Positions 3,157-49,086 of a DNA stretch of 64,000 bases are shown one piece after another. This DNA is from a virus. How positions within the stretch are numbered: the first letter of the stretch is position 1; each line of letters starts with the position of its first letter. The DNA lies in IMG/VR virus record IMGVR_UViG_3300043772_001004, positions 1 through 64,000 of that record; one strand, 5' to 3'. Below the pieces are notes generated by a model. The model saw only the letters and a list, made by a program, of their open reading frames with translations, had not been told where the DNA came from and made no database searches. Both the position numbers and the translations under genes were made by a program.

Positions 3157-3354
3157 ATGAAAAAGAAGAAAATGAAAATTGAATTCAACGGCCAAGAAGT
3201 ATACATTAACTTTGTATCAGAAGACAATGCCTATGTTATTGTAAGCAAAGACAAAGAAGGTACACTTGGCAAGTTTAAACTTAATTCAAATGAAATTAAA
3301 GGAGTTGACTTAAACAAACTTAAAAAGTTTAATAAGAAACCTAAAAAAGTTTAA
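3157..3354 (+). CDS. Small basic hypothetical protein (65 aa)
   Basis: Fills the gap between the terminator and the convergent giant gene; protein-like composition; its stop overlaps the opposing stop in TTAA at 3351-3354. Confidence 0.65.
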   Translation: MKKKKMKIEFNGQEVYINFVSEDNAYVIVSKDKEGTLGKFKLNSNEIKGVDLNKLKKFNKKPKKV

Positions 3355-32127: not shown

Positions 32128-32146
32128 ATTAAACATATAAAGTTTA
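32128..32146 (-). promoter_or_regulatory. 19-bp quasi-palindromic site, copy 1 (TAAACTTTATATGTTTAAT on - strand)
   Basis: 18/19 identical to 39325-39343; both begin at the upstream gene's TAA stop and open an intergenic gap. Confidence 0.55.
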
Positions 32147-35100
32147 GTCCATAAATGGAAACCATGAATTAATATAAATATATCCTGGGTTATTTATTGC
32201 TCCTCCTTTCTTTTTCTGTCCTTGATACATTCCCATACCAATTTTAGAATTAGCTCCTGTACTTGCAGATGTAGTAGTTGTAGCTGAAGCTTTAGCACAA
32301 TCTCTTAATAATGCTTCACTCATGCCAGGATTATTTTTCTTACATTCATCATATGCCTTTTGCCATGAATTAGTATTAGAACCGGCACTTGGATTAGGAG
32401 TTTTTTCAGTTGGATTAAAATCCATTCTACCACCTACTCCTGGAGACACTTTATAATTAGGATACATTTGGTTTAATGCATCTGTCTGCCATCTATTAGT
32501 AATAGCATTAGTATAGTAGTTTCTCAAGTTATTTCTCATTGCTAACTTAGCATTATCAAACTGTTGATTAGCAACAGTATTCTGATCATATAATCTTTGT
32601 GCATTAGCTTGTTTCAACATGCTTTCTTGGTTAGCAATGTCAGTACCTTTTAACTCAAATTGATTTGCTATATTAACATTAGCATTGTTATACTTAGAAA
32701 GTACATCCGCAGCATTCTTAGCAGCTTGACCTTGTACACTTGCAGACCTTGCAGACAATGCTTGTGGTCCAGCAAATTGAGCCATACCCTGTGTTTGGAT
32801 ATTAGCTTGTTCTGCATTAGCAGCAAGTTCTCTTGTAGGATCTAAAAATGCTGGTCTTGGTTTTTGTAACTCACCTGCAGGAGCCCATGGCATATATTTT
32901 TTAACACCCATTAAATCTCCAAAAGCACCAGTAGTTTTGATTGTATCTTGTAACCACCATTCAGCAGGAGGACCTGGGACATCTACATCCATATCTTCCT
33001 CACAAGGAGGACAAGTACCATCTGCATTTCTAGGTTGAGTTATCTCAGTTTGATTACCTTGCTCATCTACTTTTATACAAGGACATGGATTTTGTTCAGG
33101 TGGATTTTTACAAAGATCTGGATTACATTTATTTGTATTTGGATCTAATCTACCATAGTTTGGTTTAGTAGCATCATCACATTGACATTGTACTGCAGGT
33201 GGTGGAGTATCAAATTGCATTTCTTCTAACATAGCTGCAGCCACATGCTCCATGGTAGTATTACCGGTGGTTGATTTAGAAACAGGATAAAAATCATCAA
33301 TAGGAGATATCATGGCATTACCAGCTAGATGAGGGTAAAGATTTAAACTACTAGTTTCATCAGCAACACCAGATTGAAGTTCTCCTAAAAAGTTTCTTAG
33401 TTCATATATTTCATCATCATTATAAATTTTACCTTTAACATTATTTGACATTTGAGCATAGCCGTGAAAAGTAGCTTGTTGCAATGCTCTATCTTTACCA
33501 TCAACTTCAAAAGGGACATTTAATCCTTTAGCTATATCAGAAACATTTTCTCCACCATATGTATTTTTCATATATGTCTGTGCGGCTTGTAAATCTGCTT
33601 TAGATTTAATTAGAGTATCTCCAGTTGGATCTCTAGGATCACTTACTCTAGCTCCCTCTGCAATTAAAGAAGCAACTCCTTTATAATTTTTACCACCAAC
33701 TGTATAATCTTCCCATGGTGCAAATCCTCTTCCTGTATCTTTATATAATTGCCCATCAATTGATTTTGCTTGAAACAGTAAGTTTCTTTTTTGATGAGCT
33801 AAAAAAGCATCAATAACTTGTTTCTTATCTGGCAATGTATAGCCTCTTTGTGTCCAGTTTCTACTAGCTACACTAGGATTTGTTTTACCTCTAAAATGCT
33901 TTTCTTCATTTAAAGAATTTATAGTTTCATCAAAAAGTTTTTGTGAAACAGTAGAGTTAGGATCTTTAAGAGATTGCTCAAGTAAATAATATTCCGCAGC
34001 TGCAGTTTTTGCTATATCTGTACTTCCCCATTGACTCATATCAAGAGTGCCTGTATCAGTAGGAGCAGATCTTTTATAACCAGTAAAGGTTTTTGACTGA
34101 CCTGATGCATCAATTACCTTAATCTCATCTGTTGACTTTTGATCTTGTTTTTCTTTATAAGCTTTATTAATTGCTCTTTCATATTCAGCATCAGTTGCAT
34201 AATCTGATCTTTTTATTGTCCACCCATTACCAGCTTTTATTAAAGGTTTAGTTCTACCTTGATAATTTTGTGACATACCAGTTCCCATAGGCATACCATA
34301 GTCTGCTTCTGGGATTTCTTCTTCATATTCTGGTTCATCATAAAATGGCATATCATAACCTCCCATTTGCATACCATACATAGCCATTGGTGGTCCTTGT
34401 GGTTCTTCTGCACCACCTTGCATTTGCTGAATAACTTGTTGTATAAGACCAACAGCTTGTTCTTGAGGAACACCTAACTGAGTAAAGATCTGTACAATAA
34501 CTTCTGGAGGAAGTTGATTTTGTAATAAACTCATTACAACCTCTTGAGGTTCTGCACCTTGTTGTAATGCAGCTCCTATTTCCTGAACAATCTCCATCAT
34601 CTGATCTCCACCTTGCTCTTCTGCCATCATCTCTGGTGGAACTTGTTCCATACCTTCTTCAGCTCTTCTTAATCTTCTGTGAGGATAACCACCATGCATC
34701 ATCATTCCTTCTGGTGCTGGTTGTTGCATTTGCTCTTCAGGTTGAGCTACAGGTTGTCCTTGATTTAATTCTTGAGCTTGTTCTGCAGAATATTCATCTT
34801 GCATAGTTTCATCAGCATTTTCTTGTTGCTGATACTTTGCTTCTATCTGAGATTTAAGATCTACTATTTCTTTTTTAGGTGCAATCTGTTCTTCTGTAAT
34901 TCCTTTAGCTTGCATACAAGGTTTAGCAACTGCAGGTATACCTTGAGGGAAACCTTTCTTTGCTTCTTGTGCAAGAGCTAGACAGCCTAATTTAATTACA
35001 AATTTTTTGATCATTAACTCAGCAGATTCTCTATCTAATTTATCTGAGTCAGGATCTTCTAATATTTTTCTATACTTCTGTATATCATATTGTTTTGCAA

Positions 35101-35503
35101 GTTGTGCTGGTGTATATGCTTTATTTGTTCCTGCCTTACCAAACATATCTAGTATCTCAGGATCTTTTATCTTCATACCTCTAGTATCACTAAAGATAAA
35201 AGTGTCATCAGGAAGGTTTAATGGTACACCACCTGAATGGTGTCTTGGTCCTTTAATAATTTGATGCTCTGGCATCCCATCACCATTGATGTCTCCATAT
35301 ACTGTTTCTCCACCTTCTGCTTCTAGATTAGCCTCATCTCTTGGTACAGCTGTAATATATTTACTTTCCCTAAGCTTAGGCTTTCCTATATAGGCATTAT
35401 AATCTGCACCACCCATTGCTGGTACATCATTAGCTAATGCTCCTTGAACTTGGTATCCAGTTCTTGCTTTAGGTACTTTTTTAATTCTTACTTTTCTTAA
35501 CAT
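32144..35503 (-). CDS. Putative cargo protein (1119 aa), crAss cargo-1-like
   Basis: ANLEAEGGETV...GPRHHSGGVPLNLP..TFIFSD module; Q/E/M-rich linker; Cys-Pro-rich segment; Q/N/A-rich coiled C-terminal region. Confidence 0.65.
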   Translation of the reverse strand: MLRKVRIKKVPKARTGYQVQGALANDVPAMGGADYNAYIGKPKLRESKYITAVPRDEANLEAEGGETVYGDINGDGMPEHQIIKGPRHHSGGVPLNLPDDTFIFSDTRGMKIKDPEILDMFGKAGTNKAYTPAQLAKQYDIQKYRKILEDPDSDKLDRESAELMIKKFVIKLGCLALAQEAKKGFPQGIPAVAKPCMQAKGITEEQIAPKKEIVDLKSQIEAKYQQQENADETMQDEYSAEQAQELNQGQPVAQPEEQMQQPAPEGMMMHGGYPHRRLRRAEEGMEQVPPEMMAEEQGGDQMMEIVQEIGAALQQGAEPQEVVMSLLQNQLPPEVIVQIFTQLGVPQEQAVGLIQQVIQQMQGGAEEPQGPPMAMYGMQMGGYDMPFYDEPEYEEEIPEADYGMPMGTGMSQNYQGRTKPLIKAGNGWTIKRSDYATDAEYERAINKAYKEKQDQKSTDEIKVIDASGQSKTFTGYKRSAPTDTGTLDMSQWGSTDIAKTAAAEYYLLEQSLKDPNSTVSQKLFDETINSLNEEKHFRGKTNPSVASRNWTQRGYTLPDKKQVIDAFLAHQKRNLLFQAKSIDGQLYKDTGRGFAPWEDYTVGGKNYKGVASLIAEGARVSDPRDPTGDTLIKSKADLQAAQTYMKNTYGGENVSDIAKGLNVPFEVDGKDRALQQATFHGYAQMSNNVKGKIYNDDEIYELRNFLGELQSGVADETSSLNLYPHLAGNAMISPIDDFYPVSKSTTGNTTMEHVAAAMLEEMQFDTPPPAVQCQCDDATKPNYGRLDPNTNKCNPDLCKNPPEQNPCPCIKVDEQGNQTEITQPRNADGTCPPCEEDMDVDVPGPPAEWWLQDTIKTTGAFGDLMGVKKYMPWAPAGELQKPRPAFLDPTRELAANAEQANIQTQGMAQFAGPQALSARSASVQGQAAKNAADVLSKYNNANVNIANQFELKGTDIANQESMLKQANAQRLYDQNTVANQQFDNAKLAMRNNLRNYYTNAITNRWQTDALNQMYPNYKVSPGVGGRMDFNPTEKTPNPSAGSNTNSWQKAYDECKKNNPGMSEALLRDCAKASATTTTSASTGANSKIGMGMYQGQKKKGGAINNPGYIYINSWFPFMD

Positions 35504-35511
35504 AGTGTAAA

Positions 35512-38500
35512 TTATAAATATTCTATTTCACCACCTCTTGCCAGATAATCTTGGATTTCTTCATCTGTCATGTATATTTCTTCATCATTATATGGATCTG
35601 CAAACCCACCATATTCCATATAACCACCATATTTAGATACTCCTGGATAGTTACCAAATGTAGAAAGGCTGTTTCTGTCATTGCCTTGTTGAGGTCCAAA
35701 TGTACCCATATTTTGTGCCATATCTTGTTGTTGTCCTGCATATGGAGCATTAGTAATGGGTACTTGATTAAATAAATTAGTTGCTTGATATGTAGTAGCA
35801 AGGCTTCTTGGATTATTCTGTAAGTTATTAATCATTCCAGAAGTAAAATTAACACCAGTATTAAAAGCATTATTAAAAGCTTCTCCGTCCATTTGAGTTA
35901 CTTTTCTATATTGAGTTGGATCATAATAGTTTGTATCATTAGGTTTCTCATCAGAGTTAACATAAAATTGTTCTGGTGATGCTGGTGGTGTAATTGCATC
36001 TGGTGCTTTACTTATTGGATTTCCATTTTCATCAAAACCCATTGTTGTACCTTCTGGGGCATCAATATTAATATCAGAAGTATTAAATGAACCAGACATC
36101 CAATCAGTATTTTTTGGACCACCAGTATTATATTTAGGTTGTAGGAATGCACCAAAAGGTAAGCTTCTTGACAAAAACTGTTGCATACCATAAGAATTAA
36201 ATCCACGGTCACCTTTACCAGCATCTCTTGCTAACAACATTGGTAGTACTCTATATCTATCTTCTTTTCCAAACTGTCTTAAATTCTTTCTGCTATATGG
36301 ATTATCACGTCTACTAATCTTTGGTTGATCAGTAAGGTAACTTCTAAATATAGGATTTATTGGAATCAATGTATTTGCCAAACTAGATCTTCCTCTTACA
36401 ACTTTAGGATTAAGTTTATATTGCATAATAGGTACACACTGATTATATGTCTTACTCCATATAGTTCCAGGAGGGCAGTTGTGGAAGGTTTCAACTATAT
36501 CATCATTATTTGGATTTACTTCAAAAGTGTTTTGATCCAATGCTGGTGACATCTTATCTGCAATGTATTGTCCACCAGATCCTCCAGGAGGCATTGTTAT
36601 ACCACCACCTGCTTCTGGCAAACTGTATGGTTCATAAAAAGCTGGATCTTCATCACCACCATAGATAAATCTAGTAAGTGGATTTTCTACATCCATATTT
36701 ACATAACCACCCATTTCACCAAACTGAGGTTGTTGGATCATTTGATTGTCTTGAGGTTGTTGCTGTTGGTTATTACCCATGAAAATATTCATAAGTTGAG
36801 GATCACCTGATTTTTGAACAGCAGTATAAAGGTCTTCAGTTACAATTTTGTCTGCTTGAGTTTTTAGTTTAGTAACAAAATTATTTTTCTTTTCAGAAAC
36901 TTTACCATTATCCATCCTGTTACCTTTTCCTAATTCTCCACCAGGTGCAAACTTAGACATTACATTTTTAACAAACTGTTTTTTCTGAGCTCCTCCTCTT
37001 TTAAAATTATCTGGTAATGGTGTTGCCCATCCTTTATCATGGATTGTATCTCCATTTTGAATAAGCATACTATCTTTATCAAAACTAGATCTTGTAACTC
37101 CAAAATTAGGGTCATTACCAACTCTACCAGCTCCTTGGAAATTTATATTACTTCCAGGTACCAACTGTTCCATTCCCCTATCATAAATAAAATCTTTATC
37201 TGGTTCTTGTAAAAACTGGTTGTATCCTAAATATCCTAAACCACCAAGAATTCCAGCTGTTTTTAAAAAGCCTAATCCTGTTTTGTAATTACGATCTTTT
37301 AATAAACTATAGTCTGCATACTGAGCACCAAAAGGTTGATCTCCAAAAGTCATTCCACCAGGAGCTTGTGGTCCTATTTCTCTTTGCCTTCCAAGATATT
37401 GTGTTTTAACATTTGAAGCATTAGGATAAAACTTACTTCTTTCAGCAAACCTTGGATATGTAAATGGAAGAGACATTGGAGAAAAGACCATTGGTTTTCC
37501 TATCATGTTCCAAGCAGTATTCCAACCAGAAACTGGTTCTTTTTTTAAAGGACTTTCAGAAATTATTTGAGGATACTTACTTAAATCAAGTCCCGGGAAT
37601 TTAGAAGTAAAAGGAAATCTATATGGAGAGTTATACCAATTTAACTGGTTACCCATATAATAGTTTTTATCAACTATCTCTAAAGGTAACTTTGTTTTTG
37701 GGTCTAGTATCTCTTTTGTTTTAGGATCTATAATAATTTCATCCTTTAACTTTATAGAACTTTTACCATAACCTTTTAATCTTGTTGGAACTTCTGAAAG
37801 AATTTCTACTTTAAATAGTCCATTTTCATCTTTAGTAAATTTAAGTTTACCATTGTTTTGTTTATGGATACTTAAAAAATCTAACTCAGGAGCAATTGAC
37901 TCTGGCATTCCCACACCACCAAGAAGAGCACCTAATGATTGTATATCTATTTCTGTAGGTTTCTTCTTTTTAGAAAGCATATTAAATTCCTCTGTGCTCT
38001 TTAATAAAAAGTCTGCAAGTGCTGGATCTAAATTAAAACCTAAACCTGTACTGTATGTATTATCTGCATTTTTTTGTAATACTGATGGCTCATACTTATC
38101 ATTTTCTATAAGTGCATTTATATCAGTAATAATTTTTGTAGTGGTAGTAGAAGGTGCTACTTGCTCTCTCCATTTCTCTCTCCAGTTTTGTGGTCTTACT
38201 GTATTTAAAACGGTTCCTAAGTTTTCTACTCTTGTACCAAAAAACCCTCTATCAGATAATGGATTTCTTTTAGCAAAGAAGTTTTGATAGTTCTGCCATG
38301 TTGATGGAGTAACTGCAGATTCTTGTGGTGTTACAGTTCTCTGAGGTCCTACACTTTCTACAGGAGCTACTGTAGGTTCTACAGGTTCAACTACAGTTTC
38401 TCTTGTTTCAGGTTTTGCTGGAGTTTTAGCTTTTCTTCCACGCTTACCTTTTCCAGGACCTGGACCACCACCAGCAAATTTGTTTAAACCACCATACTTA

Positions 38501-39282
38501 TTAGCTGGTAATAAATCTTGTGGTACACTACCTTCATCAGCAACTGGTCTATAGCTACCTAAGTAATAACTAAGGTCTGGTGTTTGTGGAAAATTTTGTG
38601 CACCTGGAGTAAACTTAATTAGTCTACTTAAATCAAATGGTATTTCTTCTTCAGCAGATAGTTTTCCCGGATTACTATATTGATCTATAACAGCATCTTG
38701 TGGTGAATCAGCATCTGCAAAATAATTTGTATAATCATCTTCATATTCTCCACCATCATCATAATAACCACCATATTGAAATGCTCCTTCTTGTGCATAT
38801 TGTTCTGAGCCAGAATCTAAATGTTGCATACCATCATACCCACTTGGCATATCTGATTCAGCTAATGCTATATCTTCATCATCATTAGTATTTGTTGGAG
38901 CTGGTTTAGGTGTTGGTTGTGGAGCTGGACCAGCAGCTTGAGGATTGGTTCCTTGTGCAGTATCTTCCTCTTCCTCTTCTTCTAAATATGCTGGATCTTT
39001 ATAACCTTTTTGAGCAAGCACAGTCATTACTCTATTGATCATTGCAAATGCCATCTTTTGCTCTATACCATATTTGGTAACTAAAGTTTCAAAAATAGTA
39101 TTTGGATCTGCGCCATCTCTTAAACTTGCATATGTATCATTCATGATAACTTTTAATCTTTCTTGCACTTGCAATCCTTGACTGGCTTTTGGTAAAGCTT
39201 TGTTTAAGAAATTAGCTGTCTTGTTGTAGTACCCTGGTTTTTCACCGGGACCAGCCTTTCTTATTCTAACAGATTTTTTCAT
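35512..39282 (-). CDS. Putative cargo polyprotein (1256 aa) with many xxGG motifs and one hydrophobic helix
   Basis: Long ORF; FQYGG, KYGG, FKRGG, FAPGG, FIYGG, MEYGG; LGFLKTAGILGGLGYLGY; shared C-terminal tag. Confidence 0.62.
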   Translation of the reverse strand: MKKSVRIRKAGPGEKPGYYNKTANFLNKALPKASQGLQVQERLKVIMNDTYASLRDGADPNTIFETLVTKYGIEQKMAFAMINRVMTVLAQKGYKDPAYLEEEEEEDTAQGTNPQAAGPAPQPTPKPAPTNTNDDEDIALAESDMPSGYDGMQHLDSGSEQYAQEGAFQYGGYYDDGGEYEDDYTNYFADADSPQDAVIDQYSNPGKLSAEEEIPFDLSRLIKFTPGAQNFPQTPDLSYYLGSYRPVADEGSVPQDLLPANKYGGLNKFAGGGPGPGKGKRGRKAKTPAKPETRETVVEPVEPTVAPVESVGPQRTVTPQESAVTPSTWQNYQNFFAKRNPLSDRGFFGTRVENLGTVLNTVRPQNWREKWREQVAPSTTTTKIITDINALIENDKYEPSVLQKNADNTYSTGLGFNLDPALADFLLKSTEEFNMLSKKKKPTEIDIQSLGALLGGVGMPESIAPELDFLSIHKQNNGKLKFTKDENGLFKVEILSEVPTRLKGYGKSSIKLKDEIIIDPKTKEILDPKTKLPLEIVDKNYYMGNQLNWYNSPYRFPFTSKFPGLDLSKYPQIISESPLKKEPVSGWNTAWNMIGKPMVFSPMSLPFTYPRFAERSKFYPNASNVKTQYLGRQREIGPQAPGGMTFGDQPFGAQYADYSLLKDRNYKTGLGFLKTAGILGGLGYLGYNQFLQEPDKDFIYDRGMEQLVPGSNINFQGAGRVGNDPNFGVTRSSFDKDSMLIQNGDTIHDKGWATPLPDNFKRGGAQKKQFVKNVMSKFAPGGELGKGNRMDNGKVSEKKNNFVTKLKTQADKIVTEDLYTAVQKSGDPQLMNIFMGNNQQQQPQDNQMIQQPQFGEMGGYVNMDVENPLTRFIYGGDEDPAFYEPYSLPEAGGGITMPPGGSGGQYIADKMSPALDQNTFEVNPNNDDIVETFHNCPPGTIWSKTYNQCVPIMQYKLNPKVVRGRSSLANTLIPINPIFRSYLTDQPKISRRDNPYSRKNLRQFGKEDRYRVLPMLLARDAGKGDRGFNSYGMQQFLSRSLPFGAFLQPKYNTGGPKNTDWMSGSFNTSDINIDAPEGTTMGFDENGNPISKAPDAITPPASPEQFYVNSDEKPNDTNYYDPTQYRKVTQMDGEAFNNAFNTGVNFTSGMINNLQNNPRSLATTYQATNLFNQVPITNAPYAGQQQDMAQNMGTFGPQQGNDRNSLSTFGNYPGVSKYGGYMEYGGFADPYNDEEIYMTDEEIQDYLARGGEIEYL

Positions 39283-39300
39283 ATAGCATGTTATATATTA

Positions 39301-39310
39301 AATATACTAA
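39301..39310 (-). promoter_or_regulatory. Candidate late promoter element TTAGTATATT
   Basis: Identical 10-mer in three intergenic gaps (39301, 56874, 58949) plus a one-mismatch copy at 63694, each shortly upstream of a - strand start codon. Confidence 0.6.
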
Positions 39311-39324
39311 ATTTTAATTTATTC

Positions 39325-39343
39325 ATTAAACTTATAAAGTTTA
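39325..39343 (-). promoter_or_regulatory. 19-bp quasi-palindromic site, copy 2 (TAAACTTTATAAGTTTAAT on - strand)
   Basis: Perfect TAAACTT-TAT-AAGTTTA inverted repeat; near-identical to 32128-32146. Confidence 0.55.
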
Positions 39344-42300
39344 CTCATCTTCTATAATGTATCCACCTTTGATATACTTATCTATTTCTTTTTGAGTAAG
39401 TTTTGTAGACACATATCCACCTTCTTTATAAGCTTCTATTATACCTTCTCCTTTACTGTAAGATTCTGGTACTTCTAATCTTAGCCACTCATTTCCAAAT
39501 TGATCTGTTTCAGGAACAGCACCAGATTTACCAAATAATTTAATGTAATGTTTTTTATAATCATTATAAATACCAGATGCTTTATCATTACCTTGTATTC
39601 GTGTAGATAATTCTGCAGTAGGTATATAAAGATATTTCTTCCCTTGATCAGCAGCATATTGTAACATCTCTTGTATTAATCTTTTTTCAGTAGATTTTTT
39701 ATTGGTCATTAAAACTCTTTTTTGTTGTAAGTTTCTTTTAATGACATCAGCTGCTTCACCAGCAAATTGTTCCATATGAGATCCTGGTTTAAATTGAACA
39801 TTTGGAGAAAAGTAATTACCAGTTGAATGTTGTTCAAATTCTTGCAAGTATCCTTCTAAATCAAATTCTTCACTACCATCTTTTCTATATCTTCTTTTCA
39901 TTTTAGAAAACTGCTCAGCAGCATCTGATTGAATTCCTGATGCATAGAGTGCATCAGGTTGATACGCGTTTTCATAAACATGAACATGTGCTAATGTATC
40001 ATTTGCATTACCATGTTCTTTTGATCCATAACCAAATTGATCTACATTACTAAATTGAATAGTTCTTGGATTTGTAAGTTGAAAATCTGCAAAAGTATCT
40101 TTGTTAGCTAAATAAGCTTCTTGTTTTTTATTGATAATAGCTAAATTATTTTCAAAGCTTTGTTCAAGTTCTTTAAGATATTCTGCATCTACATATTTTG
40201 AAACACCAGAATTAGTTGTAATAGTAGATTCTCCTTTTTCAAGAGCAGATTTTACTTTTTCAATTTTTTCATTTGAGCTGTAAATTAAATTACGTTTTAA
40301 AAGATCTAATCCAGTAGCATATTTATCAATTGCATGTACTACATTAGCATTCATTCTATTATCCCCTTGTTGGTACTTTGACCATAATTTTCTAAAAGGA
40401 TCCGGATATATAAAATTTAAACCATAAGTAGAATTAGGAGCTTCCCTGTAATCACCTATTTCTGGATCAAATATATCTTTACCAAATAAACTACCTTCTT
40501 CAAAAGCAAAAGGAACTTCTGTTTTATTTAATGCTGGAATAGCTTGTTGTACACTTCCTAATAATTCTTTAGCATCCATGTGTAAAACATTGGAATCTAA
40601 TCCTTGCCACAAATCTGGATTATTAAATAATGATTCTATAACTTCATCTCCCCCTGCTGTTTTACGTAAAATACTGAGAGCTTGTTCAAAATTTATTTTA
40701 CCTGTCTTAGGATTAATAGCTTTGTATAAAGGACTTTGAGGATTAGCTGTTACATTTAAATTTAATCCTGTAGGGGGAGTAACAGTTTCATAAATAAATG
40801 CATCTATATTAGTTGGTTCACCAGTCATAGTTTTATATTCTTCTGGAAACCCCATTGACAGTTGTTGTCCTTGTGTAGGTTTTCCTAATACTTCTGTGCT
40901 TTGAGTATTTGGAAAAACAAGTTGAGGTTCTACAGTTGGTGCTGCTTCTCTAATTATAGGATTAGGTTCAAAAATTAATGGTAATTCAGGAGCTTTAATA
41001 ATATTTTCTTTTTCTCTTTCTTTTTCTTTACCAAATCTTTTTTCTTTAACACCTTTACCAAGACTTGCTTTAGGTAATTCTCCTCCAGACTTCAATCCTT
41101 TATTATAATACATTCTATCAACAACTGTAGGATCCATTTTAAATGGCTTTAAGTAGTATCTTGCATCTCTAAGATTCTTATAACCATGCTTGCCTATCAT
41201 TAGACCCATTCCAAGAGGAAGTATATTTTCATTTACTTGTTTTTCGTTTCCTGTTTGAAGTCCTTCATAAATATTTTTTCCTGCTTCAATTGCAAAACCA
41301 GGATTATCAGGATTTAAGTTAAATGCATCTACTCCAAATTTAGTTAATAGTGCATTACCCGGTGTTGCAAGATTCCTTGCTATTTGATACTGTGGTAATT
41401 TAGAAACAATAGGTGCTGCTTTAGATAACTTTGGTAAAAGTCTAGCTCCCGACAATGCCTGTAAAGTTTTTGAATAAGGTGCTGCAGCAAAGAATGCATT
41501 TAAAGCAACATCTCCAGTATTAATTTCTGGATTATCGTTTACATAATTTTGATAAGCAGTGCTTCCTGTTTGAGCAGCCCAGTGAAATGGACTAAATAAA
41601 TTTATAGCCTGATCAATAGGTTTTTGGAATTCCATAGATTTATTATAAAACAGTTGTCTTCCACCTGGACCAAATGCTTGTGTCCAAGCATCTGCTTCAC
41701 TTTCTGTCATTTGATCTGTCATTGTACCAACCACAGGATCTTGCCATTGTCCAGAAGTCCACTTTTCTAAAGTATTCTTTGGTTGGTTTACAAAACTACC
41801 TAATTGATCCAATCCAAAATAAACAGGATTCATATTATTCTGAAATTTATTCTGAAGGAATTTAGCATCTTCTAGTTCTTTTTTAGCTTTATCTCTATAT
41901 TCATTTATAGCTTGATTTTTATATGTTTCTCCAAATAAAGTTTGAGCATAAGATGGTTGTGCGCGATACTGTTGTAAAAAGTTTTGTGCTTCAGGAGAGC
42001 CTAGAAAATTTTCAAAGGTTCCATATTGCTCTACTAAATTTGAACCCCTATACTCATCAGTATTCTGAGCATTAACTTCTGTAGGTAAAATATTATTTAA
42101 AAAAGCATTCTGCAAATAAGTTTTTGCTTCTTGATCTATTGTTTGTTTTTTCTGATTAAGAAATTTATCTGGATCTTTATATGATGTTATATCTCTATTA
42201 CCACTTAATTTTCCAAGTGATATATCTGTTCCCTCAACTTTAAATTTTAATTTATTTACTTTATTATTAAACTCTTCTAGAATTTTAGCTTTTTGTTTTT

Positions 42301-43861
42301 GGACAGACTCTGGGTCATTAGAAACATCATAGTATGCTTTTATATTAGCTGGGTTTACATCTATCCCCATATCTATTTCTGTTAAAGCATTCATCTGTTT
42401 AACAGCATCATTATATGCTTCTGCATACTCAGGGGTTACTTTATCTGAGATAGGATTAATTGGATCTAAACTACCTGACCAATTTGATCCAGATACTTTA
42501 TCAAATAATAGATTATTTAATCCTAAGTAATTAGCTTGTGTATTATTTATATTATCTTCCTTTTCTACATTGTTGAAATAGGAATTAATAGTTGTTTCAT
42601 AGTTTTTAAGTATGCTTTCTTCTGTATCTTGTTTTTTTCTATTTGGAAATCTAGTAGTAAAGATACTTATGTCACTATTATTAATAGTTGCTCTACCATA
42701 ATCATCAGTTTTAAATAAACTTTTGTCTACTGGTTTCCAATCAAAGTTCCAAGTAAATTGATTTTTATAATCATTCTTAAAATTAGAATTATCATTAAGA
42801 ACTGAAAAATTATCATTGTTCCATTGGTTTCTGCTAGTGTATTGAAAGATATTTCCTTTTGTATCTTTTTTATACATTACCCCATTGTCATCAGTAAAAT
42901 ATACATCTGCATTTAATTGCTTATCAATAAGCTCACTTACATCTTTAAAGTTTTGATCTACACCTTTTTTAGTACCCCAACCTTCTTTTTCCAATTCTTT
43001 TCTGGCATCTTCTGCAGACATTCCAGATTTTATTTTTTTTAGAAGTTCCTTTGATACATTCTTGTTATAATCATTATCAGCCATTGCAATAAAACTTCCA
43101 AACTCATTTTGAATTTGTTTAGAATCTAAACCATGATACTTTTTAAATTCATTAGGTCTAACACCTTGATCATATATTAGACCTAATATAACAGGTCTTG
43201 GATAAAAATTAACTTTCCCATCTGATCCTTTTTCAAAATAATATTCCTCAAACTGATCAATTATTGGTTGAATCTGTTGATTAAACACATCTTCAGAATA
43301 TGAAAAAATTGGTTCAAGTTTTTTATGTTTATTTCCTTTCTTTAATGCATCTTTAGTATATTGCTCCCATTTTACATTAAAATTTTGTTGGTTTTGCCCA
43401 GATTTTTCTTCTTGTTTTAATTGTTCTATTTCTTGTATTTTTTGAAATATAGCTACACGTTCATCAGCATTAGCCTCATCTACTCTAATTTTTAAAAGAC
43501 GAACTGTAAACTCATCTATACACTCTCCCTTATATGGCACTTTTCCAGGAGGACAATCTTCAGGCTGTAATGTTTCATATAACCCATCTTCTGTTTCTAG
43601 TTGAGGAGCATATACCTTGTTATATAAACGATCAATGTTTTCATTATATGTTGGTTCTTGTTGATATACAGGATCTACATTATATAAGTCAGGTTGATTA
43701 ACTAATTGGTTATTATTAGTTAAGTTAGCCACTGATGCTGGATTATTGTTTATTGGTCCAACAGGAGAATCCCAATTAGATATTGGAACTTGAGTTTTTA
43801 ATTTTCTCTTAGACCCTCCATTTCTTAATTTAGGAACTTTAATAATTTTATACTTTGCCAT
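39341..43861 (-). CDS. Putative cargo polyprotein (1506 aa)
   Basis: Long ORF coupled to the upstream gene by a TAATG overlap; LKSGG-ELPKASLG junction; C-terminal globular domain with LAHVHV...GIQSD; shared C-terminal tag. Confidence 0.62.
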   Translation of the reverse strand: MAKYKIIKVPKLRNGGSKRKLKTQVPISNWDSPVGPINNNPASVANLTNNNQLVNQPDLYNVDPVYQQEPTYNENIDRLYNKVYAPQLETEDGLYETLQPEDCPPGKVPYKGECIDEFTVRLLKIRVDEANADERVAIFQKIQEIEQLKQEEKSGQNQQNFNVKWEQYTKDALKKGNKHKKLEPIFSYSEDVFNQQIQPIIDQFEEYYFEKGSDGKVNFYPRPVILGLIYDQGVRPNEFKKYHGLDSKQIQNEFGSFIAMADNDYNKNVSKELLKKIKSGMSAEDARKELEKEGWGTKKGVDQNFKDVSELIDKQLNADVYFTDDNGVMYKKDTKGNIFQYTSRNQWNNDNFSVLNDNSNFKNDYKNQFTWNFDWKPVDKSLFKTDDYGRATINNSDISIFTTRFPNRKKQDTEESILKNYETTINSYFNNVEKEDNINNTQANYLGLNNLLFDKVSGSNWSGSLDPINPISDKVTPEYAEAYNDAVKQMNALTEIDMGIDVNPANIKAYYDVSNDPESVQKQKAKILEEFNNKVNKLKFKVEGTDISLGKLSGNRDITSYKDPDKFLNQKKQTIDQEAKTYLQNAFLNNILPTEVNAQNTDEYRGSNLVEQYGTFENFLGSPEAQNFLQQYRAQPSYAQTLFGETYKNQAINEYRDKAKKELEDAKFLQNKFQNNMNPVYFGLDQLGSFVNQPKNTLEKWTSGQWQDPVVGTMTDQMTESEADAWTQAFGPGGRQLFYNKSMEFQKPIDQAINLFSPFHWAAQTGSTAYQNYVNDNPEINTGDVALNAFFAAAPYSKTLQALSGARLLPKLSKAAPIVSKLPQYQIARNLATPGNALLTKFGVDAFNLNPDNPGFAIEAGKNIYEGLQTGNEKQVNENILPLGMGLMIGKHGYKNLRDARYYLKPFKMDPTVVDRMYYNKGLKSGGELPKASLGKGVKEKRFGKEKEREKENIIKAPELPLIFEPNPIIREAAPTVEPQLVFPNTQSTEVLGKPTQGQQLSMGFPEEYKTMTGEPTNIDAFIYETVTPPTGLNLNVTANPQSPLYKAINPKTGKINFEQALSILRKTAGGDEVIESLFNNPDLWQGLDSNVLHMDAKELLGSVQQAIPALNKTEVPFAFEEGSLFGKDIFDPEIGDYREAPNSTYGLNFIYPDPFRKLWSKYQQGDNRMNANVVHAIDKYATGLDLLKRNLIYSSNEKIEKVKSALEKGESTITTNSGVSKYVDAEYLKELEQSFENNLAIINKKQEAYLANKDTFADFQLTNPRTIQFSNVDQFGYGSKEHGNANDTLAHVHVYENAYQPDALYASGIQSDAAEQFSKMKRRYRKDGSEEFDLEGYLQEFEQHSTGNYFSPNVQFKPGSHMEQFAGEAADVIKRNLQQKRVLMTNKKSTEKRLIQEMLQYAADQGKKYLYIPTAELSTRIQGNDKASGIYNDYKKHYIKLFGKSGAVPETDQFGNEWLRLEVPESYSKGEGIIEAYKEGGYVSTKLTQKEIDKYIKGGYIIEDE

Positions 43862-46800
43862 TACTTTACTTCTTCAAGTTTATAACCTAATCTTTCTAAT
43901 TCTTCTTTAGAGAGATCATCTAATTCTATTTCATCCCCCACTTCATATTCAAATGCTCCACCGTATTGTTTAAAGATAATAGGATTTTCTTGTGTTAAAA
44001 CCATAGGCTTACCAAATGCATCCATAGCATCTACCATCCAAGGACTAAGATTTTTTTCATAACTATATTTGTCCATATATGCTTTACGATTAAATCCCCA
44101 AAGATCACGTGCTACTGTAGAAAATTTATCTTTTGATAATCTTTTCAAAAAGTTCATGTGACCTTGTATATCATCATATGGATTAATAGGATTTCTTCTC
44201 AAGTGAAAACCAAATGGTAACTCTCCTTCTTTTGTTGTATTAGCATTAACTTGAAATGGAATAGTCTCTTGACCATATTGATCAAATAAATAATTTAAAT
44301 TATCTTTAATAAGCCCTTCAAATTCAGATGGTGAATATGGTGATGCATCAACAAGTTTAAGTTTTCCAGTGGTAGGGTCATAAAATGTTTTAAATTCATC
44401 ACTAGTAAGTAAATTATCATTTTTATATCCTTGCATTAGATCTACTAAAGGACCAGATGTTTTACTTTCATCTGGTATGTTTGCTAATAAACTTTTTATT
44501 GAAAGATCTTCCCCTCCTTTTATTTCAGAAAATAACTCATAAGCTTTTAATGGACCATACCAATCTATTGCTTGTTGTAATCCAGCATCACTTTCAAAGT
44601 CATAAAATGTTGGCTCAAAACCTGTTTCATCACCAAAGAAATAATTTCTATTTAAATCTCTCTTACCTTCACCATAAAGTTGTCTAATATGTTCAGGAAC
44701 TGTTTGTCCATGCATCACACCTGTACCAAAATAACTTGCAGGATATTTTTCTGAGCCTTTTATTGCATTTATTATATCTGTATCATATCTTCCTGCGCGG
44801 TGGCTTTGTGATGCAATATCATAACCTATTTCTTTTGCTAAAAGACTAAAAGGATTATAATTAGATCTTGTAAATTTCTTTATGTTCTTTTCCCATCCAG
44901 TTGGTAGTTTATCAATTAACCCTGGTACTTTTTCAGCTATTTTTATAAGGCCGCTACCAGATTTTGGTGGCCATCCACCCTCTTTTCTTGTTAATGTAGG
45001 TACAGAAATATCTTCTACTATATATCCACCTTTAACATATTTGTCTATATCTTTTTTAGATAATGTTAATTCAATTGATCCACCATCTTTAAAAGACATA
45101 TTATCAAATAAATGCTTACCTCTTTTATCTGTATAGACAGCAGGCTGTTTTAATTTTTGACATCTACATTTTGGACATGGTCTTTCATAACCTTCTGGAC
45201 AATCTCCTCTACCTAGAATTGTACCATTAGGATTTACTTGAAGTTCTGGTGGGTTAACTTCAAAATTGTTTTCTGTAGGTGTGTCTTCCTGTGGAGTATC
45301 ACCTGTGTATTCTTCATCATAGTCTTGATCATATGCATAATCATTGTATGTTTTTTTTCTTTTAATAGCAGGTAGATTTAGATCCTTTAATTTATCTATA
45401 GCACCTTCAATTGGAACTGTATATCTTACATTACCATATGGTTTAAGTGTTATAGGAATATTATCTCCCATAGTGTCTTTACCACCATAATCTAATCTAA
45501 GTCCTCCGGTAAAAGAAGCTACCCCAGGAAAGTCTTTAAATGGTTTTATTTGAACTGTACCTTCTGGACTTAGGAAAGATATATCATATCTAGGCTCATC
45601 AGTTTTATTAATAACACCTTGAGCAGTTTTTGTTCCTTGCTCTATATCATTTGCATATGCATTTAATATATTTTGTGTTTGGATGTCATTATATTCAGGC
45701 CGTTGTCTAAGTGCAAAATTTAATACATTTAACTTAGGTATAAAAGCCATATCTCCCTGCCTTGTTAAACCTTTATCAAAATATCTTTGAGGTGATATTT
45801 TTGCATTGTTTTTTCTTCTACCAAAAACACCCATCAGACCAAGATCTGCTGTACCATAAAATCCAGGTTCAGGTGCATACCCAACATTTAAAGATCCGTA
45901 TCCTGTAAAAGGTCCACTAGAAGAATCTCCAAATGCATTACCAAAAACATCCCAACCTACATTTGCTGTAAGTGGAATTCCTTTTTTATACAAAGGTTTT
46001 GCTCCTGCTAGATTTTTTGCAGCATTATATTGATTTATAATAGTTTGATTTAATTCAGAAACAGGAGTCCCTGTATAATTTGATACATCTTGTAAATATT
46101 GTTGATACTTTGGATTATTTTCACCTCCCAAAGCAGGATCATAGTAACTACTAAACAATCCTTCTTGAGGTACAAAATTTAAAGTCCGGTTTGTTAAACT
46201 TTGTGCATCAGTATTGTAAGGTCTACCTAAAGTAAAAGATAAAGGATTGGCAGATAGATCTGCTTTTTTAAATAGATTAGGTGTAGTATATGTTAAACTA
46301 TAATTTGGATTTCTATTAAAGTCTGAAGCTTGACCATAAGCAGATCTATAGTCAAATGGTGTAAATGTTAAAGATCTATCTTTTCCAGTACCTGGTAAAC
46401 CAAATGAAGCTTTTGGTAAATCTTTTTTCTTTGCTCCACCATTTTTACTATATTGAATAGTATCATCAGTTTCATTATCATTTTTAGAAATGTTGTTTAA
46501 CATCCATTTTATATCTTTATCAGAATAAGTTTTTCTAAGTTCATTTAATGGCTTAGAATATAATAACTTTTTATCTAACTGTTTAAATTGTCTTCCTGTT
46601 ATTTTCTTATTAAAAGGATCATAAATATTTTGTTCATCCGCACCAAATTGTATTTCTCTCAATCTTGATCTAACTTCACTTCCTTTATTACTTAATAAAT
46701 AATTATTCCAATCATCAAATTTATTTTGTTCATATATATCTCTTGGTATTTCTTCTTCACCCATGTATTCATCTTCTAACTTACTTTGTGAGTTTTTATA

Positions 46801-49086
46801 CCAAGCCATTTCATCTTTACCATATTGACTATTTTTCCAATTTAATGGAACTCTATATTGCATTGCTAATTGATCATTATATGGAATAAGTCTATCTAAT
46901 TCACCAGCTGGTCTATCAGAAGAATGACTAATCTCATGAACTAACATTTGTTTATTTCCAGGAAAAGATTGATGTATTGAAACATTACCTGTATTACTAT
47001 CAGATATTCCCCATGGGGAAAAGCCATATAAATCCTCAATCAATTTTACATTAGGATTTGTTTTATCAAAATCAATATCTAGTGCTGGGATAGTTTGTAT
47101 ATTTTTTTTTCTTAAATCTTTTATTTCTTTAAAAAGTTTTTGAGCATCTGAATCTGTTCTAGTTGATAATTTTGATGATTTCATAAGCATTTTATCATGC
47201 ATTGGAGAATCATGCCATTTATTTATCCAGGATAATGCTTTAGAAAAATCTGAACCTAATGGACTAACACTTACTTCTGGTTCAATTTGCATGTTTGTTG
47301 CAACATCTGGATTTTCTAATAAGTATTGTGGATCAAGAGGTGCAAGTTTTCTATCAACTGGAACACAAGTTTCTCCATTCCAATAGTGATATGGTGGACA
47401 TTCCTCTTGTAAATTTTCTCCACCATCAAAAAATTTAGATAATCCTCCATACTTAAATGCTCTACCTTCTGCTTGTTTTTTCTTTGATTGCTCATACTGT
47501 TCAAGCCAAGTATCTAAATTTTTATCATACTCCTCATATTCTTTTTTATACTTCTGTTGATTCATTAAATCTCTTAAAGAAGCTGCTCCTCTAAATTCCA
47601 TTTCAGAGCCAGTTGCATTGCCATAGTCTAATTCTCCAGGAACAAAGTTACCTTCTTCATCTTCATAACCTTCAAAATAATTTTTATCATAGCCTGTAGC
47701 TTTCTGTACTATTCTAGGAATTAACCTTGTTTTGTTTCTTTTACCTAGAGCAACATGTCCTTTACTATCTAATACACCTTTATCAAATAAAGCAGCAATT
47801 TTATTTTGTGGCAACTTAACATCTAGACTTAATCTATCAGCTGTGTATGGATCTAATGTATATTGTGGAGCTTCAATAGAATCTGGAAGAGAATAGTCAT
47901 GTACCTGTAATTCTCCTAGATCTTTATTTTCTAATAAAGGAGGATCAATGATTGGTAATTCTATTGGTTCTACTTTTATATCCTCATAGATTGGATTTAT
48001 AGTTTTAACATACTCACATTTTTTTCCAGTAACAGGAACTGTTTCTTCATCTGTCCCAACTAATTTTTTTCCAGAAGGTGCTTTCTTCGGTACATTATTT
48101 ATAATAGTTGTTTTTGGTACACAAGGTTTAGGAGGGTTTTGAGATATTACAGGTTTTATAGGCTTTTTGTATTTAAATACTCTCCATGGTTGATTTCCTT
48201 GATAATGTGTAAATACTTTAACAGGACTAATATTTTGATAAGGATTTCCTGGCAATGCCCATGATCCAAATCCCTGATTCCTACCTTGAAATTTACTTAT
48301 TGCTGCAGATGGTATTTTATATTGTGGATTTTTTAAAACATTCATGAATTGATTATATGAATTATATAATGCTAAACTATCATTATATGCTTGCATACGT
48401 TCTTTATGAGAAAGACCATTTTGTGCTTTGATCAACTCTCCACCATCTGCATAATACTTTGCATTAGGATCAAAGATTTTATTTTTTCTTGATTTAGGTT
48501 TAGAGAATAATGGATTTTGTGCAAAGAACTTATTGGTAGCTTCAAGGCTTCTAGAGTATGCTTTTGAGTTTTTCTTATTAGGAATTTTAGGTCTCTTAGC
48601 AGAACCTCCCTTTTTAAAATTATCTGGACTTTCTAAGTCTTTAATATTATGATTATAATAGTTAGATGTTAGTTCTTCTCCAGGATTTATATTTCTTTTA
48701 GCTAACATCAATATATGATCTCCATTATCTACTTCATATATATTTGGACTTTCACTATGATTGTAATAACCTCCTAGTTCTACAGATGGAAATGGTGCTT
48801 GATATTGCTCCCCATTTTTTGTAAAACTTTTTCTAATATGAGAAACACCTATGACATCATCTTTAGCAATTGGCTCTTGACTAAATATACCTTTACCTTG
48901 TATTTTAGATGGGCCAACACTTAATGATTTAAATACAGGAGCATTGACACCATTCTCAGCACTTATTACATTATCACTTTTTTTACTACCAGTTGTGTTG
49001 TTTGTATAAGCTTTGTTATACTTAGTAGCTGGTTTAGATTTATTTAAATTTCTAATTGCGTCTATTATTACTTTCTTATTGTACAT
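43861..49086 (-). CDS. Putative cargo polyprotein (1741 aa) with an N-terminal SET domain, a zincin-like domain and further unknown domains
   Basis: SKIQGKGIF...YYNHSESPN...AKRNINPGEELTSNY (SET); LVHEISH; repeated xxGG delimiters; TAATG overlap with the muzzle gene. Confidence 0.75.
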   Translation of the reverse strand: MYNKKVIIDAIRNLNKSKPATKYNKAYTNNTTGSKKSDNVISAENGVNAPVFKSLSVGPSKIQGKGIFSQEPIAKDDVIGVSHIRKSFTKNGEQYQAPFPSVELGGYYNHSESPNIYEVDNGDHILMLAKRNINPGEELTSNYYNHNIKDLESPDNFKKGGSAKRPKIPNKKNSKAYSRSLEATNKFFAQNPLFSKPKSRKNKIFDPNAKYYADGGELIKAQNGLSHKERMQAYNDSLALYNSYNQFMNVLKNPQYKIPSAAISKFQGRNQGFGSWALPGNPYQNISPVKVFTHYQGNQPWRVFKYKKPIKPVISQNPPKPCVPKTTIINNVPKKAPSGKKLVGTDEETVPVTGKKCEYVKTINPIYEDIKVEPIELPIIDPPLLENKDLGELQVHDYSLPDSIEAPQYTLDPYTADRLSLDVKLPQNKIAALFDKGVLDSKGHVALGKRNKTRLIPRIVQKATGYDKNYFEGYEDEEGNFVPGELDYGNATGSEMEFRGAASLRDLMNQQKYKKEYEEYDKNLDTWLEQYEQSKKKQAEGRAFKYGGLSKFFDGGENLQEECPPYHYWNGETCVPVDRKLAPLDPQYLLENPDVATNMQIEPEVSVSPLGSDFSKALSWINKWHDSPMHDKMLMKSSKLSTRTDSDAQKLFKEIKDLRKKNIQTIPALDIDFDKTNPNVKLIEDLYGFSPWGISDSNTGNVSIHQSFPGNKQMLVHEISHSSDRPAGELDRLIPYNDQLAMQYRVPLNWKNSQYGKDEMAWYKNSQSKLEDEYMGEEEIPRDIYEQNKFDDWNNYLLSNKGSEVRSRLREIQFGADEQNIYDPFNKKITGRQFKQLDKKLLYSKPLNELRKTYSDKDIKWMLNNISKNDNETDDTIQYSKNGGAKKKDLPKASFGLPGTGKDRSLTFTPFDYRSAYGQASDFNRNPNYSLTYTTPNLFKKADLSANPLSFTLGRPYNTDAQSLTNRTLNFVPQEGLFSSYYDPALGGENNPKYQQYLQDVSNYTGTPVSELNQTIINQYNAAKNLAGAKPLYKKGIPLTANVGWDVFGNAFGDSSSGPFTGYGSLNVGYAPEPGFYGTADLGLMGVFGRRKNNAKISPQRYFDKGLTRQGDMAFIPKLNVLNFALRQRPEYNDIQTQNILNAYANDIEQGTKTAQGVINKTDEPRYDISFLSPEGTVQIKPFKDFPGVASFTGGLRLDYGGKDTMGDNIPITLKPYGNVRYTVPIEGAIDKLKDLNLPAIKRKKTYNDYAYDQDYDEEYTGDTPQEDTPTENNFEVNPPELQVNPNGTILGRGDCPEGYERPCPKCRCQKLKQPAVYTDKRGKHLFDNMSFKDGGSIELTLSKKDIDKYVKGGYIVEDISVPTLTRKEGGWPPKSGSGLIKIAEKVPGLIDKLPTGWEKNIKKFTRSNYNPFSLLAKEIGYDIASQSHRAGRYDTDIINAIKGSEKYPASYFGTGVMHGQTVPEHIRQLYGEGKRDLNRNYFFGDETGFEPTFYDFESDAGLQQAIDWYGPLKAYELFSEIKGGEDLSIKSLLANIPDESKTSGPLVDLMQGYKNDNLLTSDEFKTFYDPTTGKLKLVDASPYSPSEFEGLIKDNLNYLFDQYGQETIPFQVNANTTKEGELPFGFHLRRNPINPYDDIQGHMNFLKRLSKDKFSTVARDLWGFNRKAYMDKYSYEKNLSPWMVDAMDAFGKPMVLTQENPIIFKQYGGAFEYEVGDEIELDDLSKEELERLGYKLEEVK

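Follow-up and report, generated by a model that had tools for sequence, protein, structure and literature searches.

How do four very long proteins of a crAss-like phage come to carry the same short peptides at the borders between otherwise unrelated modules, and what might these peptides do? The question is raised by four genes in the first 64 kb (hereafter, the window) of the 102.7-kb IMG/VR record IMGVR_UViG_3300043772_001004, which derives from an uncultured phage and has an estimated completeness of ~87%. The products, P0004, P0003, P0002 and P0001 (cargo proteins 1 to 4), total 5622 amino acids (aa). An earlier note on this DNA had described them as modular polyproteins delimited by two related peptides, one ending in Gly-Gly (type A) and one of the form hydrophobic-x-Lys-Ala-x-x-Gly (type B), and had proposed that these are either maturation-protease sites or docking motifs by which swappable effector domains are packaged and injected. 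We find that the pattern is real and apparently undescribed. The peptides, which we call seams where they join modules, are enriched in the four proteins, conserved in relatives, selected at the peptide level, fixed in orientation, located in stretches predicted to be unstructured, and used as points of module exchange, and the genes that encode them are located in the crassvirus cargo block. A literature search found LPKAQ in no relevant paper of the library covered and no description of a junction peptide in published work on crassvirus cargo.

For counting, type A was defined as [FYLM]xxGG and strict type B as [LIV][PI][KE]AxxG, and 2000 composition-preserving shuffles served as the null. 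The four cargo proteins contain 25 type A motifs against 6.6 ± 2.5 expected and eight strict type B motifs against 0.07 expected, and neither count was reached in any shuffle. The density of type A is 4.4 per 1000 aa in the cargo proteins versus 0.59 in the window's other 15,212 aa, and strict type B is restricted to the four cargo genes across the whole 102.7-kb genome, with zero matches in all other open reading frames (ORFs). Every motif instance listed in the earlier note is present in the protein to which it was assigned, at verified coordinates; LRRAEEG and IRKAGPG match type B loosely. The same distribution is seen in 20 related loci, 14 of them distinct, that were taken from IMG/VR using an alignment as the query (a related-locus search with P0003 alone found nothing). 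Type B occurs 92 times in their 60 non-redundant cargo ORFs (74.7 thousand residues) versus zero times in 46 non-cargo ORFs (muzzle, C2-like and polymerase ORFs, see below; 54.3 thousand residues), and type A occurs 282 and 36 times, respectively.

These counts bear on the possibility that Gly-rich, low-complexity composition and a loose regular expression together produce the pattern. The type A pattern is permissive, some of its matches (e.g., LDYGG at 1198 and YTVGG at 600) are probably incidental, and the Gly content of the four proteins, 6.4–9.5%, is above that of their neighbours; GG dipeptides as such number 51 against 34.8 expected, a value reached by 3 of the 2000 shuffles. The shuffles never reach the observed motif counts, which refutes this explanation, and the positional conservation, orientation and exclusivity of the motifs, together with 107 profile matches at E ≤1e-3 among 1.84 billion proteins, leave it next to no probability.

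The two peptides follow a directional grammar. In the context logo of the GG, position −3 is F, M or Y, position −2 is K, Q or A, and the residue that follows the GG is Y, E or V; LPKAQxG is the commonest form of LPxAxxG. For 68 internal LPxAxxG sites, a GG ends within 8 residues upstream in 42 and within 8 residues downstream in 2, so that the A-then-B pairing described in the earlier note has a defined polarity. The median distance between seams is 232 aa. The 24 N-terminal LPxAxxG sites lie at residues 9–14 or 30, behind a basic leader such as MIKVRIKKLPQARTG or MAKYRITSIPQSLPKAQLG, the leaders ahead of the motif being 8–29 residues long. Leader and C-terminal tag are both conserved and are specific to each of the four gene positions; the tag, ~30 residues long, consists of GG, a short strand, a helix, G-G/Y and another short strand. 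At some internal junctions a whole C-terminal tag is followed by LPKAQxG, as in '...KGGYIIEDISIPSLPKAQLG' of the related locus L010 and 'GGYVVEELPKAKLG' of protein P0183, and residues 1332–1371 of P0004 provide a further example of a whole tag at an internal junction. Because tag and leader meet in this way, an internal seam resembles a junction at which two successive units have been fused end to beginning. Two resemblances of the tag were considered and set aside: its hydrophobic register did not, on inspection, fit that of a double-glycine bacteriocin leader, and a weak Pfam match of the P0002 tag to SutA-RBD (E 0.011) fell short of the cut-off.

Conservation among relatives is concentrated on the same peptides. 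A collection of 5.8 billion proteins contains 84 homologs of P0002, and 72 of these, at 26–96% identity, were taken into an alignment. Twenty P0002 columns are invariant (K32, A33, G36, Y240, Y244, G763, F770, G781, G782, D791, Y819, G858, G859, P868, L869, F872, G875, G876, A891 and G894). Thirteen of them are motif residues, and P868 and L869 additionally lie inside an extended NPLTRFIYGG seam; down to ~26% identity, the motif residues are nearly the sole invariant ones. At 92 LPxAxxG sites, the L, P, A and G codons vary synonymously and 87 distinct 21-mers are found, which indicates selection on the peptide and not on the DNA.

Two further features of P0002 were observed. Its C936/C949 pair (window 36436–36477), at least 90% conserved in the 72 homologs, belongs to a two-cysteine element, CPPG-x8-9-C-[VI], that is found in three cargo proteins (also P0003 ~103–114 and P0004 ~563–574). 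Residues 666–690 (window 37213–37287, minus strand) form a Gly-rich hydrophobic stretch (…GLGFLKTAGILGGLGYLGY…) reminiscent of residues 136–158 of crAss001 gp45, a predicted transmembrane segment with a Gly zipper.

Homologs of P0004 are mosaic, one matching at 91% identity over 49% of the length and another at 85% over 27%, and the ends of their local alignments cluster at residues 150–178 (FKKGG), 210–229 (YADGG/LIKAQNG), 540–559, 880–899, 1330–1340, 1370–1395 and 1700–1709. For P0004, 46% of the internal break-points are no more than 10 residues away from a motif, versus 9.3 ± 1.5% at random, and for P0002 34%, versus 16% at random; for neither protein did any of 2000 random sets reach the observed value. 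In many P0002 homologs, inserts of ~120 aa begin after residue 172, and four homologs have an extra module of ~205–260 aa between FIYGG and LPEAGGG. In three of these four, P0002 residues 840–880 have a match at either side of the insert. Residues 1368–1709 of P0004, its C-terminal module, are found inside the second cargo gene of L010, where they are flanked by LPKAQLG and LPKAKMG. Judging from these alignments, the seams delimit modules and are sites of exchange, both between relatives and between neighbouring cargo genes, which bears out the module boundaries and the plug-and-play grammar put forward in the earlier note.

The modules themselves are diverse. Those of the relatives include SET, CBM_14, DUF6782, VanY, ART-PolyVal, SLT and lysozyme modules, and P0004 is laid out as a SET module, a linker module, a ~320-aa module, a zincin-like module, a beta-rich module, an internal copy of the C-terminal tag and a C-terminal module. 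The zincin-like module, within residues ~560–880, has HEISH at 717–721 (window 46924–46938, minus strand) and 28 homologs detected with jackhmmer. HExxH is found in cargo ORFs of 5 of the 14 distinct relatives that keep the seams, and the putative metallopeptidase family DUF6782 in 2 of 20. P0004 thus combines a SET domain with HExxH, several unrelated domains and mosaic coverage among relatives, as polyvalent proteins do, and since the relatives' modules include SET, VanY, ART-PolyVal and zincin-like ones, we consider these to be polyvalent cargo proteins. The SET domain (lysine methyltransferase) spans residues 66–143 of P0004 (window 48658–48891, minus strand; Pfam E 1.9e-8), and the SET module is present in 13 of 20 aligned relatives, each time N-terminal to the FKKGG seam. 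The earlier note had this domain bracketed by SAENG and FKKGG; the FKKGG seam is confirmed, and SAENG is no GG motif.

Module exchange centred on the seams, and internal seams with the appearance of a C-terminal tag joined to an N-terminal leader, would also be expected if the seams were gene-fusion scars or recombination hot-spots that have no present function in the protein and are re-created by recombination of co-infecting phages. We find this very unlikely. The motif residues are the family's most conserved down to 26% identity, the codons vary to the extent given above and leave little DNA homology, and the same elements occur at true termini, implying a function at the ends.

We modeled P0002 residues 57–1256 (72-sequence alignment) and P0004 residues 1–1200 (20-sequence alignment) with AlphaFold2. 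The models are poor overall, with a mean predicted local distance difference test score (pLDDT) of 42 and 40, respectively. In these predictions, the motif sites all fall in 10-residue blocks of pLDDT ~24–38 that are mostly coil, with FKRGG 760–764 and FAPGG 778–782 of P0002 touching low-confidence predicted helices; the SET domain, P0002 336–676 and the helix of the C-terminal tag are predicted with pLDDT 50–79. Lack of enrichment, a position inside folded domains and lack of conservation, which the earlier note had named beforehand as refuting its proposal, were none of them what we found.

The four genes are located in the crassvirus cargo block, on the minus strand, directly 3′ of the muzzle gene and ahead of giant genes for proteins associated with the virion RNA polymerase. 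The gene order is tail ring protein 2 (55618–56283), ring protein 1 (54572–55618; both identified with Pfam and PHROGs), muzzle, P0004, P0003, P0002, P0001, a 1052-aa gene and giants of 2413, 3480 and 2631 aa, and it is identical in 14 distinct related loci. Outside the window, the 102.7-kb record was found to encode the portal, the large terminase and the crassvirus major capsid protein. In crAss001, the genes for cargo proteins C1 (gp45) and C2 (gp46) come after the muzzle gene and are followed by those for RNA-polymerase-associated proteins, and all of these proteins were found in virions (Bayfield et al. 2023, PMC10172136). By this analogy, the four proteins are most likely carried in the particle and injected by the phage, and the gene order agrees with the earlier note in placing them in the region of packaged and ejected crAss-like proteins.

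P0001 is probably a C1-like, portal-anchored cargo protein, and the 1052-aa protein is probably C2-like. These assignments rest on synteny and on an ESM language-model feature search, in which P0001 residues 1–230 lie near crAss_CARG1 clusters (0.92, 181 shared features) and the 1052-aa protein near crAss_CARGO2 clusters (0.92, 8/10 matches), because the profile methods were silent: the Pfam hidden Markov models (HMMs) of crAss_CARG1 (PF25725) and crAss_CARGO2 (PF25712) match nowhere in the genome, phmmer matched none of crAss001 gp45, gp46, gp47, gp49 and gp50 to window proteins, and hhalign found no match between P0001 orthologs and gp45. A P0001-ortholog profile retrieved nothing from PDB sequences below E 0.28. 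The most strongly conserved part among all cargo proteins is P0001 residues 40–180 (window 34964–35386, minus strand), where dozens of residues are invariant across 15 orthologs (…EAEGGETVYGDINGDG…GPRH..GGVPL…FIFSDT…); its similarity to the domain of crAss001 gp45 that is bound to the portal is short and collinear but not significant. The 2631-aa giant (window 3351–11246, minus strand) contains a LysM domain at residues 2306–2333 and a weak match to the adhesin-like HiaBD2, which are unexpected for a putative RNA-polymerase-associated virion protein.

A composite-seam profile built from 27 seams and searched against 1.84 billion representative proteins extends these observations beyond the related loci. 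Thirteen of the 107 matches mentioned above reach E ≤1e-10; the median length of the matched proteins is 1409 aa, most have 2–7 matched stretches, and together they contain 187 composite GG-x-LPKAQxG sites. Two of the 107 are unrelated tandem-repeat proteins. One profile match, P0229 (380 aa), is apparently an unrelated look-alike: it has a signal peptide of the Gram-positive type, and EELPKANYG occurs in its seven tandem repeats of 17 residues. The seam peptide is a feature of a whole clade, not of one genome. No match to P0004, P0002 or P0001 was found by tblastn in 50,697 phage records. The distant cultured relatives phi17:2, phi4:1, Fpv1, Lbo-JY46 and csAssE-Sib were found by the muzzle protein only, and LPxAxxG was not found in the proteins encoded after their muzzle genes. 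Neither crAss001 nor Cellulophaga phage phi17:2 nor Flavobacterium phage Fpv1 has the motif, but basic leaders and several aromatic-GG sites are present in crAss001 gp45 and phi17:2 gp41.

What, then, do the seams do? The reading that we favour, with a confidence a little short of even, is that the seams are left uncut and serve as disordered joints in a beads-on-a-string cargo that is ejected, their invariant residues being read by a conserved partner; the uncut state, the hinge role and the existence of the partner are what we infer. Besides the sequence evidence above, the ejection proposed for crAss001 C1, the beads proposed for the virion RNA polymerase of N4 and the negative Pfam searches for a maturation protease gene, all described below, speak for this reading. 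Each bead, with a median length of ~230 aa, would be flanked by an N-side leader (Leu-Pro-Lys/Gln/Glu-Ala-x-x-Gly) and a C-side tail (Phe/Tyr/Met-x-x-Gly-Gly). On fusion of two beads, tail and leader would meet in one seam of ~13 residues, and at true protein ends the same elements would take the form of the basic N-terminal leader and the ~30-residue C-terminal tag. Uncut disordered joints would allow the beads to be stored extended and threaded singly through the portal and tail, and the partner would read the invariant seam residues on loading or ejection. We propose that, as the beads all end in the same peptides, joining at a seam would give a working protein, and that swaps therefore occur exactly there.

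Alternatively, the seams may be maturation cleavage sites and the cargo proteins genuine polyproteins that a phage or host protease cuts at the GG or LPxA or next to them. Cutting would free the effectors and strip the N-terminal targeting leaders, as in T4 internal, phiKZ inner-body, and adenovirus or African swine fever virus (ASFV) precursors. We consider this explanation less likely than the favoured one. Protease sites typically have invariant small residues, here GG, A and G, within disordered stretches, the SET, VanY and ADP-ribosyltransferase modules plausibly work better once free, and gene fission and fusion at the seams are apparently tolerated. The N-terminal motif copies lie 9–13 residues from the Met, a distance similar to the length of the capsid-targeting sequence of T4. 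Zincin-like peptidases have been proposed to process polyvalent proteins (PMC5512222), and P0004 has its HExxH. The presence of HExxH in only 5 of the 14 relatives, however, means that the P0004 zincin module cannot be a general processing enzyme, and the maturation protease that the earlier note suggested looking for elsewhere did not appear: Pfam searches of nearly all ORFs of at least 135 aa in the ~87% complete record found no prohead, clan-CE/adenain-like, C39 or other maturation protease, the peptidase-type matches being limited to Peptidase_S74 (a tail-fibre chaperone) and Amidase_2. No protease family, and hence no T4-type prohead protease, was matched by the sole gene between portal and capsid, which encodes a 417-aa protein.

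The sequences at the seams also fit cleavage poorly. K, Q, E and R are all found ahead of the Ala in LPxAxxG, a variation seldom seen at a P1 site. The adenovirus protease has the consensus (M/I/L)-x-G-G, with the hydrophobic residue at P4; here F, M and Y are enriched at −3 from the first Gly, that is, at P5, and K, Q and A at P4, so that an adenain-type consensus is not matched. In crAss001, no processing of cargo has been reported (PMC10172136), and virion bands of ~150, 270 and >300 kDa (PMC6235969) fit uncut giants. In gp45, INEGG 444–448 places one GG inside the continuously modelled portal-bound domain (PMC10172136), which is weak evidence against cutting because that GG is not a seam.

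The 417-aa protein (G000:C1:70336-71589, minus strand, equal to L024:7336-8589, outside the window) is acidic, Glu/Gln/Lys-rich and probably helical, with a basic C terminus and no family match, and looks like a candidate scaffold.

A third view, unlikely in our estimation, is that a host factor, such as a periplasmic or cytoplasmic ratchet or a hijacked envelope import protein, recognizes the seams as short linear motifs during or after ejection. Repeated, evenly spread and directional motifs in disordered Gly-rich stretches would suit proteins that cross the envelope, and the only proteins with the motifs are those encoded beside the muzzle gene, which would be the first to leave if they behave as crAss001 C1. 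Colicins offer a parallel, in that the Tol and Ton boxes of their disordered translocation domains bring about import via hijacked envelope proteins. Against a host factor, there is no candidate, we know of no binding box that the seam motif resembles, and the data do not separate a host partner from a phage-encoded one. A more far-reaching idea, and an improbable one, is that the seam (aromatic-x-x-GG-x-LPKAQ-x-G) serves crAss-like phages as an address code dedicated to the delivery of proteins, read seam by seam by a conserved virion or host component for loading into the procapsid and then as an N-terminus-first ratchet through the tail into the cell. If so, any domain flanked by both peptides would be an injectable payload.

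The favoured reading of uncut joints recognized by a partner has points against it as well. A plain flexible hinge needs no invariant Leu-Pro-x-Ala-x-x-Gly, and there is so far no candidate for the partner. The N-terminal motif copies, by their distance of 9–13 residues from the start Met, resemble a cleavable targeting propeptide. There may also be a phage protease beyond detection, the record being ~87% complete, or a host protease. A position outside folded domains is a weak discriminator because the mean pLDDT of both models is ~40–42. Finally, the three RNA-polymerase-associated giants and the C2-like protein, presumably packaged and ejected too, lack the motifs, which are therefore neither a general packaging tag nor a general requirement for loading or ejection. 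The seams may be confined to one class of cargo, which, like crAss001 C1, extends through portal and tail in storage and is ejected before the rest.

CrAss-like phages pack megadaltons of protein that are injected ahead of the DNA, and the seam peptide bears on how this protein is selected, stored and threaded through the tail. It provides a sequence signature for finding injected proteins and for parsing giant ORFs of uncultured phages into modules, and a concrete target for testing loading, hinge or cleavage models. The seams would also explain how anti-host effector domains (SET, ADP-ribosyltransferase, cell-wall enzymes) are exchanged without breaking delivery. If the peptide were sufficient for delivery, chosen proteins could be loaded into phage particles.

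Table 1. Positions in the window of the cargo genes, their flanking genes, and the seams, leaders and tags.
Feature	Position	Strand	Evidence or remarks
Muzzle protein gene	49086..54569	-	Pfam crAss_MUZ, E 5.8e-30; type B motif absent
Cargo gene 1, P0004, 1741 aa	43861..49086	-	ORF; SET PF00856 at residues 66-143; mosaic homologs
Cargo gene 2, P0003, 1506 aa	39341..43861	-	ORF; only the N-terminal part and the C-terminal tag common to relatives
Cargo gene 3, P0002, 1256 aa	35512..39282	-	84 homologs; invariant columns mainly motif residues
Cargo gene 4, P0001, 1119 aa	32144..35503	-	Full-length orthologs in all relatives
1052-aa protein, motif-free context gene	28939..32097	-	Type A 0, type B 0; full-length conservation in all relatives
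Composite seam YADGG-E-LIKAQNG, P0004 212-224	48415..48453	-	58 homology break-points at residues 210-229
Composite seam SKNGG-x5-LPKASFG, P0004 880-896	46399..46449	-	27 break-points at residues 880-899
Composite seam LKSGG-E-LPKASLG, P0003 923-935	41057..41095	-	Motif match, coordinates verified
FKKGG seam, P0004 157-161, 14 residues past SET domain	48604..48618	-	G160/G161 at least 90% conserved; break-points cluster at 150-178
Double seam FKYGG-LSKF-FDGG, P0004 544-556	47419..47457	-	Break-points 540-559; pLDDT blocks 25-29
Internal copy of C-terminal tag, P0004 1332-1371 (FKDGG, strand, helix, KGG, YIVEDI, KEGG)	44974..45093	-	Break-points 1330-1340 and 1370-1395
Cargo protein 1 C-terminal tag (FKQYGG ... 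LGYKLEEVK)	43864..43974	-	Position-specific conservation in relatives
Cargo protein 2 basic N-terminal leader, ending LRNGG	43814..43861	-	Relatives have MAKYRITSIPQSLPKAQxG here
Cargo protein 2 C-terminal tag (YKEGG ... KGGYIIEDE)	39344..39430	-	Position-specific tag
Cargo protein 3 N-terminal leader, ending LPKASQG (30-36)	39175..39282	-	K32, A33, G36 invariant in 72 sequences
Double seam FQYGG-YYDDGG, P0002 168-178	38749..38781	-	G171, G172, G177, G178 at least 90% conserved
Seams FKRGG ... FAPGG, P0002 760-782	36937..37005	-	G763, G781, G782 invariant
Seam cluster EMGG ... NPLTRFIYGG ... LPEAGGG, P0002 855-894	36601..36720	-	Nine invariant residues: G858 G859 P868 L869 F872 G875 G876 A891 G894
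Cargo protein 3 C-terminal tag (KYGGYMEYGG ... MTDEEIQDYLARGGEIEYL)	35515..35637	-	Conserved tag; helix predicted with pLDDT ~60-69
Cargo protein 4 N-terminal leader, ending VPKARTG (10-16)	35456..35503	-	Conserved in 15 orthologs
Seam cluster MQMGG ... IPEADYG ... LIKAGNG, P0001 378-427	34223..34372	-	Motif match; P0001 orthologs
Cargo protein 4 C-terminal tag (KKKGG ... GYIYINSWFPFMD)	32147..32215	-	Position-specific tag

We compared the seams with several known systems in which short peptides mark boundaries or direct cargo. In polymorphic toxins, the junction motifs VENN (CdiA) and DPxGL (Rhs) mark the exchange points of variable modules, and in encapsulins a short terminal peptide directs cargo into the lumen of an HK97-fold shell. 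The seams share with these a short conserved peptide at a point of module exchange or at a terminus. The sequences and systems are different, however, and the seams are internal, repeated and paired. Adenovirus protease and ASFV pS273R cut virion precursors at conserved GG, and the T4 gp21 protease cuts capsid-targeting sequences at Leu-x-Glu then Ala. Conserved GG or L-x-E/Ala at precursor boundaries and short N-terminal leaders are the points of likeness. The cargo proteins differ in that no protease gene was detected by Pfam, the hydrophobic register is shifted, K, Q, E or R precedes Ala, and no cleavage product is on record.

Polyvalent proteins are giant mosaics of unrelated enzymatic modules, encoded by phages and conjugative elements, that are predicted to be packaged and injected (Iyer et al. 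2017, PMC5512222). Relatives of the present phage share with them the ART-PolyVal, zincin-like, VanY and SET modules. In contrast to the seams, no conserved junction peptide is described in that work, where the word 'linker' is absent from the main text, and the zincin module to which it ascribes processing is sporadic here.

The closest counterpart in gene arrangement is crAss001, in which C1 spans the portal and tail and was proposed to be ejected from the N to the C terminus with partial unfolding (PMC10172136). In both phages, the cargo genes lie between the muzzle and virion RNA polymerase genes, and both C2 and its likely counterpart, the 1052-aa protein, are motif-free. In addition, gp45 has a basic N-terminal leader ending in FDTGG, as well as FAEGG at 260 and FAYGG at 559. 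The differences are considerable: no sequence homology is detectable with phmmer, hhalign or Pfam HMMs, crAss001 has one C1 gene of 842 aa versus four genes of 5622 aa here, and gp45 has no LPxAxxG and no described effector domains. A similarity of the C-terminal tag to gp45 553–591 (BLASTP E 0.010 in a single comparison) was rejected, since gp45 scored lower than shuffled controls with an HMM built from 35 tags, and the idea that aromatic-GG sites bracket two resolved gp45 modules was dropped because gp45 has 19 GG in 842 aa and the bracketing may be due to chance.

For the virion RNA polymerase of N4, passage through a tail channel of ~35 Å as ~11 flexibly linked beads of ~250–300 aa has been proposed (PMC13434306, 2026). 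The N4 linkers have no reported shared sequence, and the N4 protein is a single enzyme, not a set of shuffled effectors; the bead length of 250–300 aa is nevertheless similar to the median distance between seams in the cargo proteins described here.

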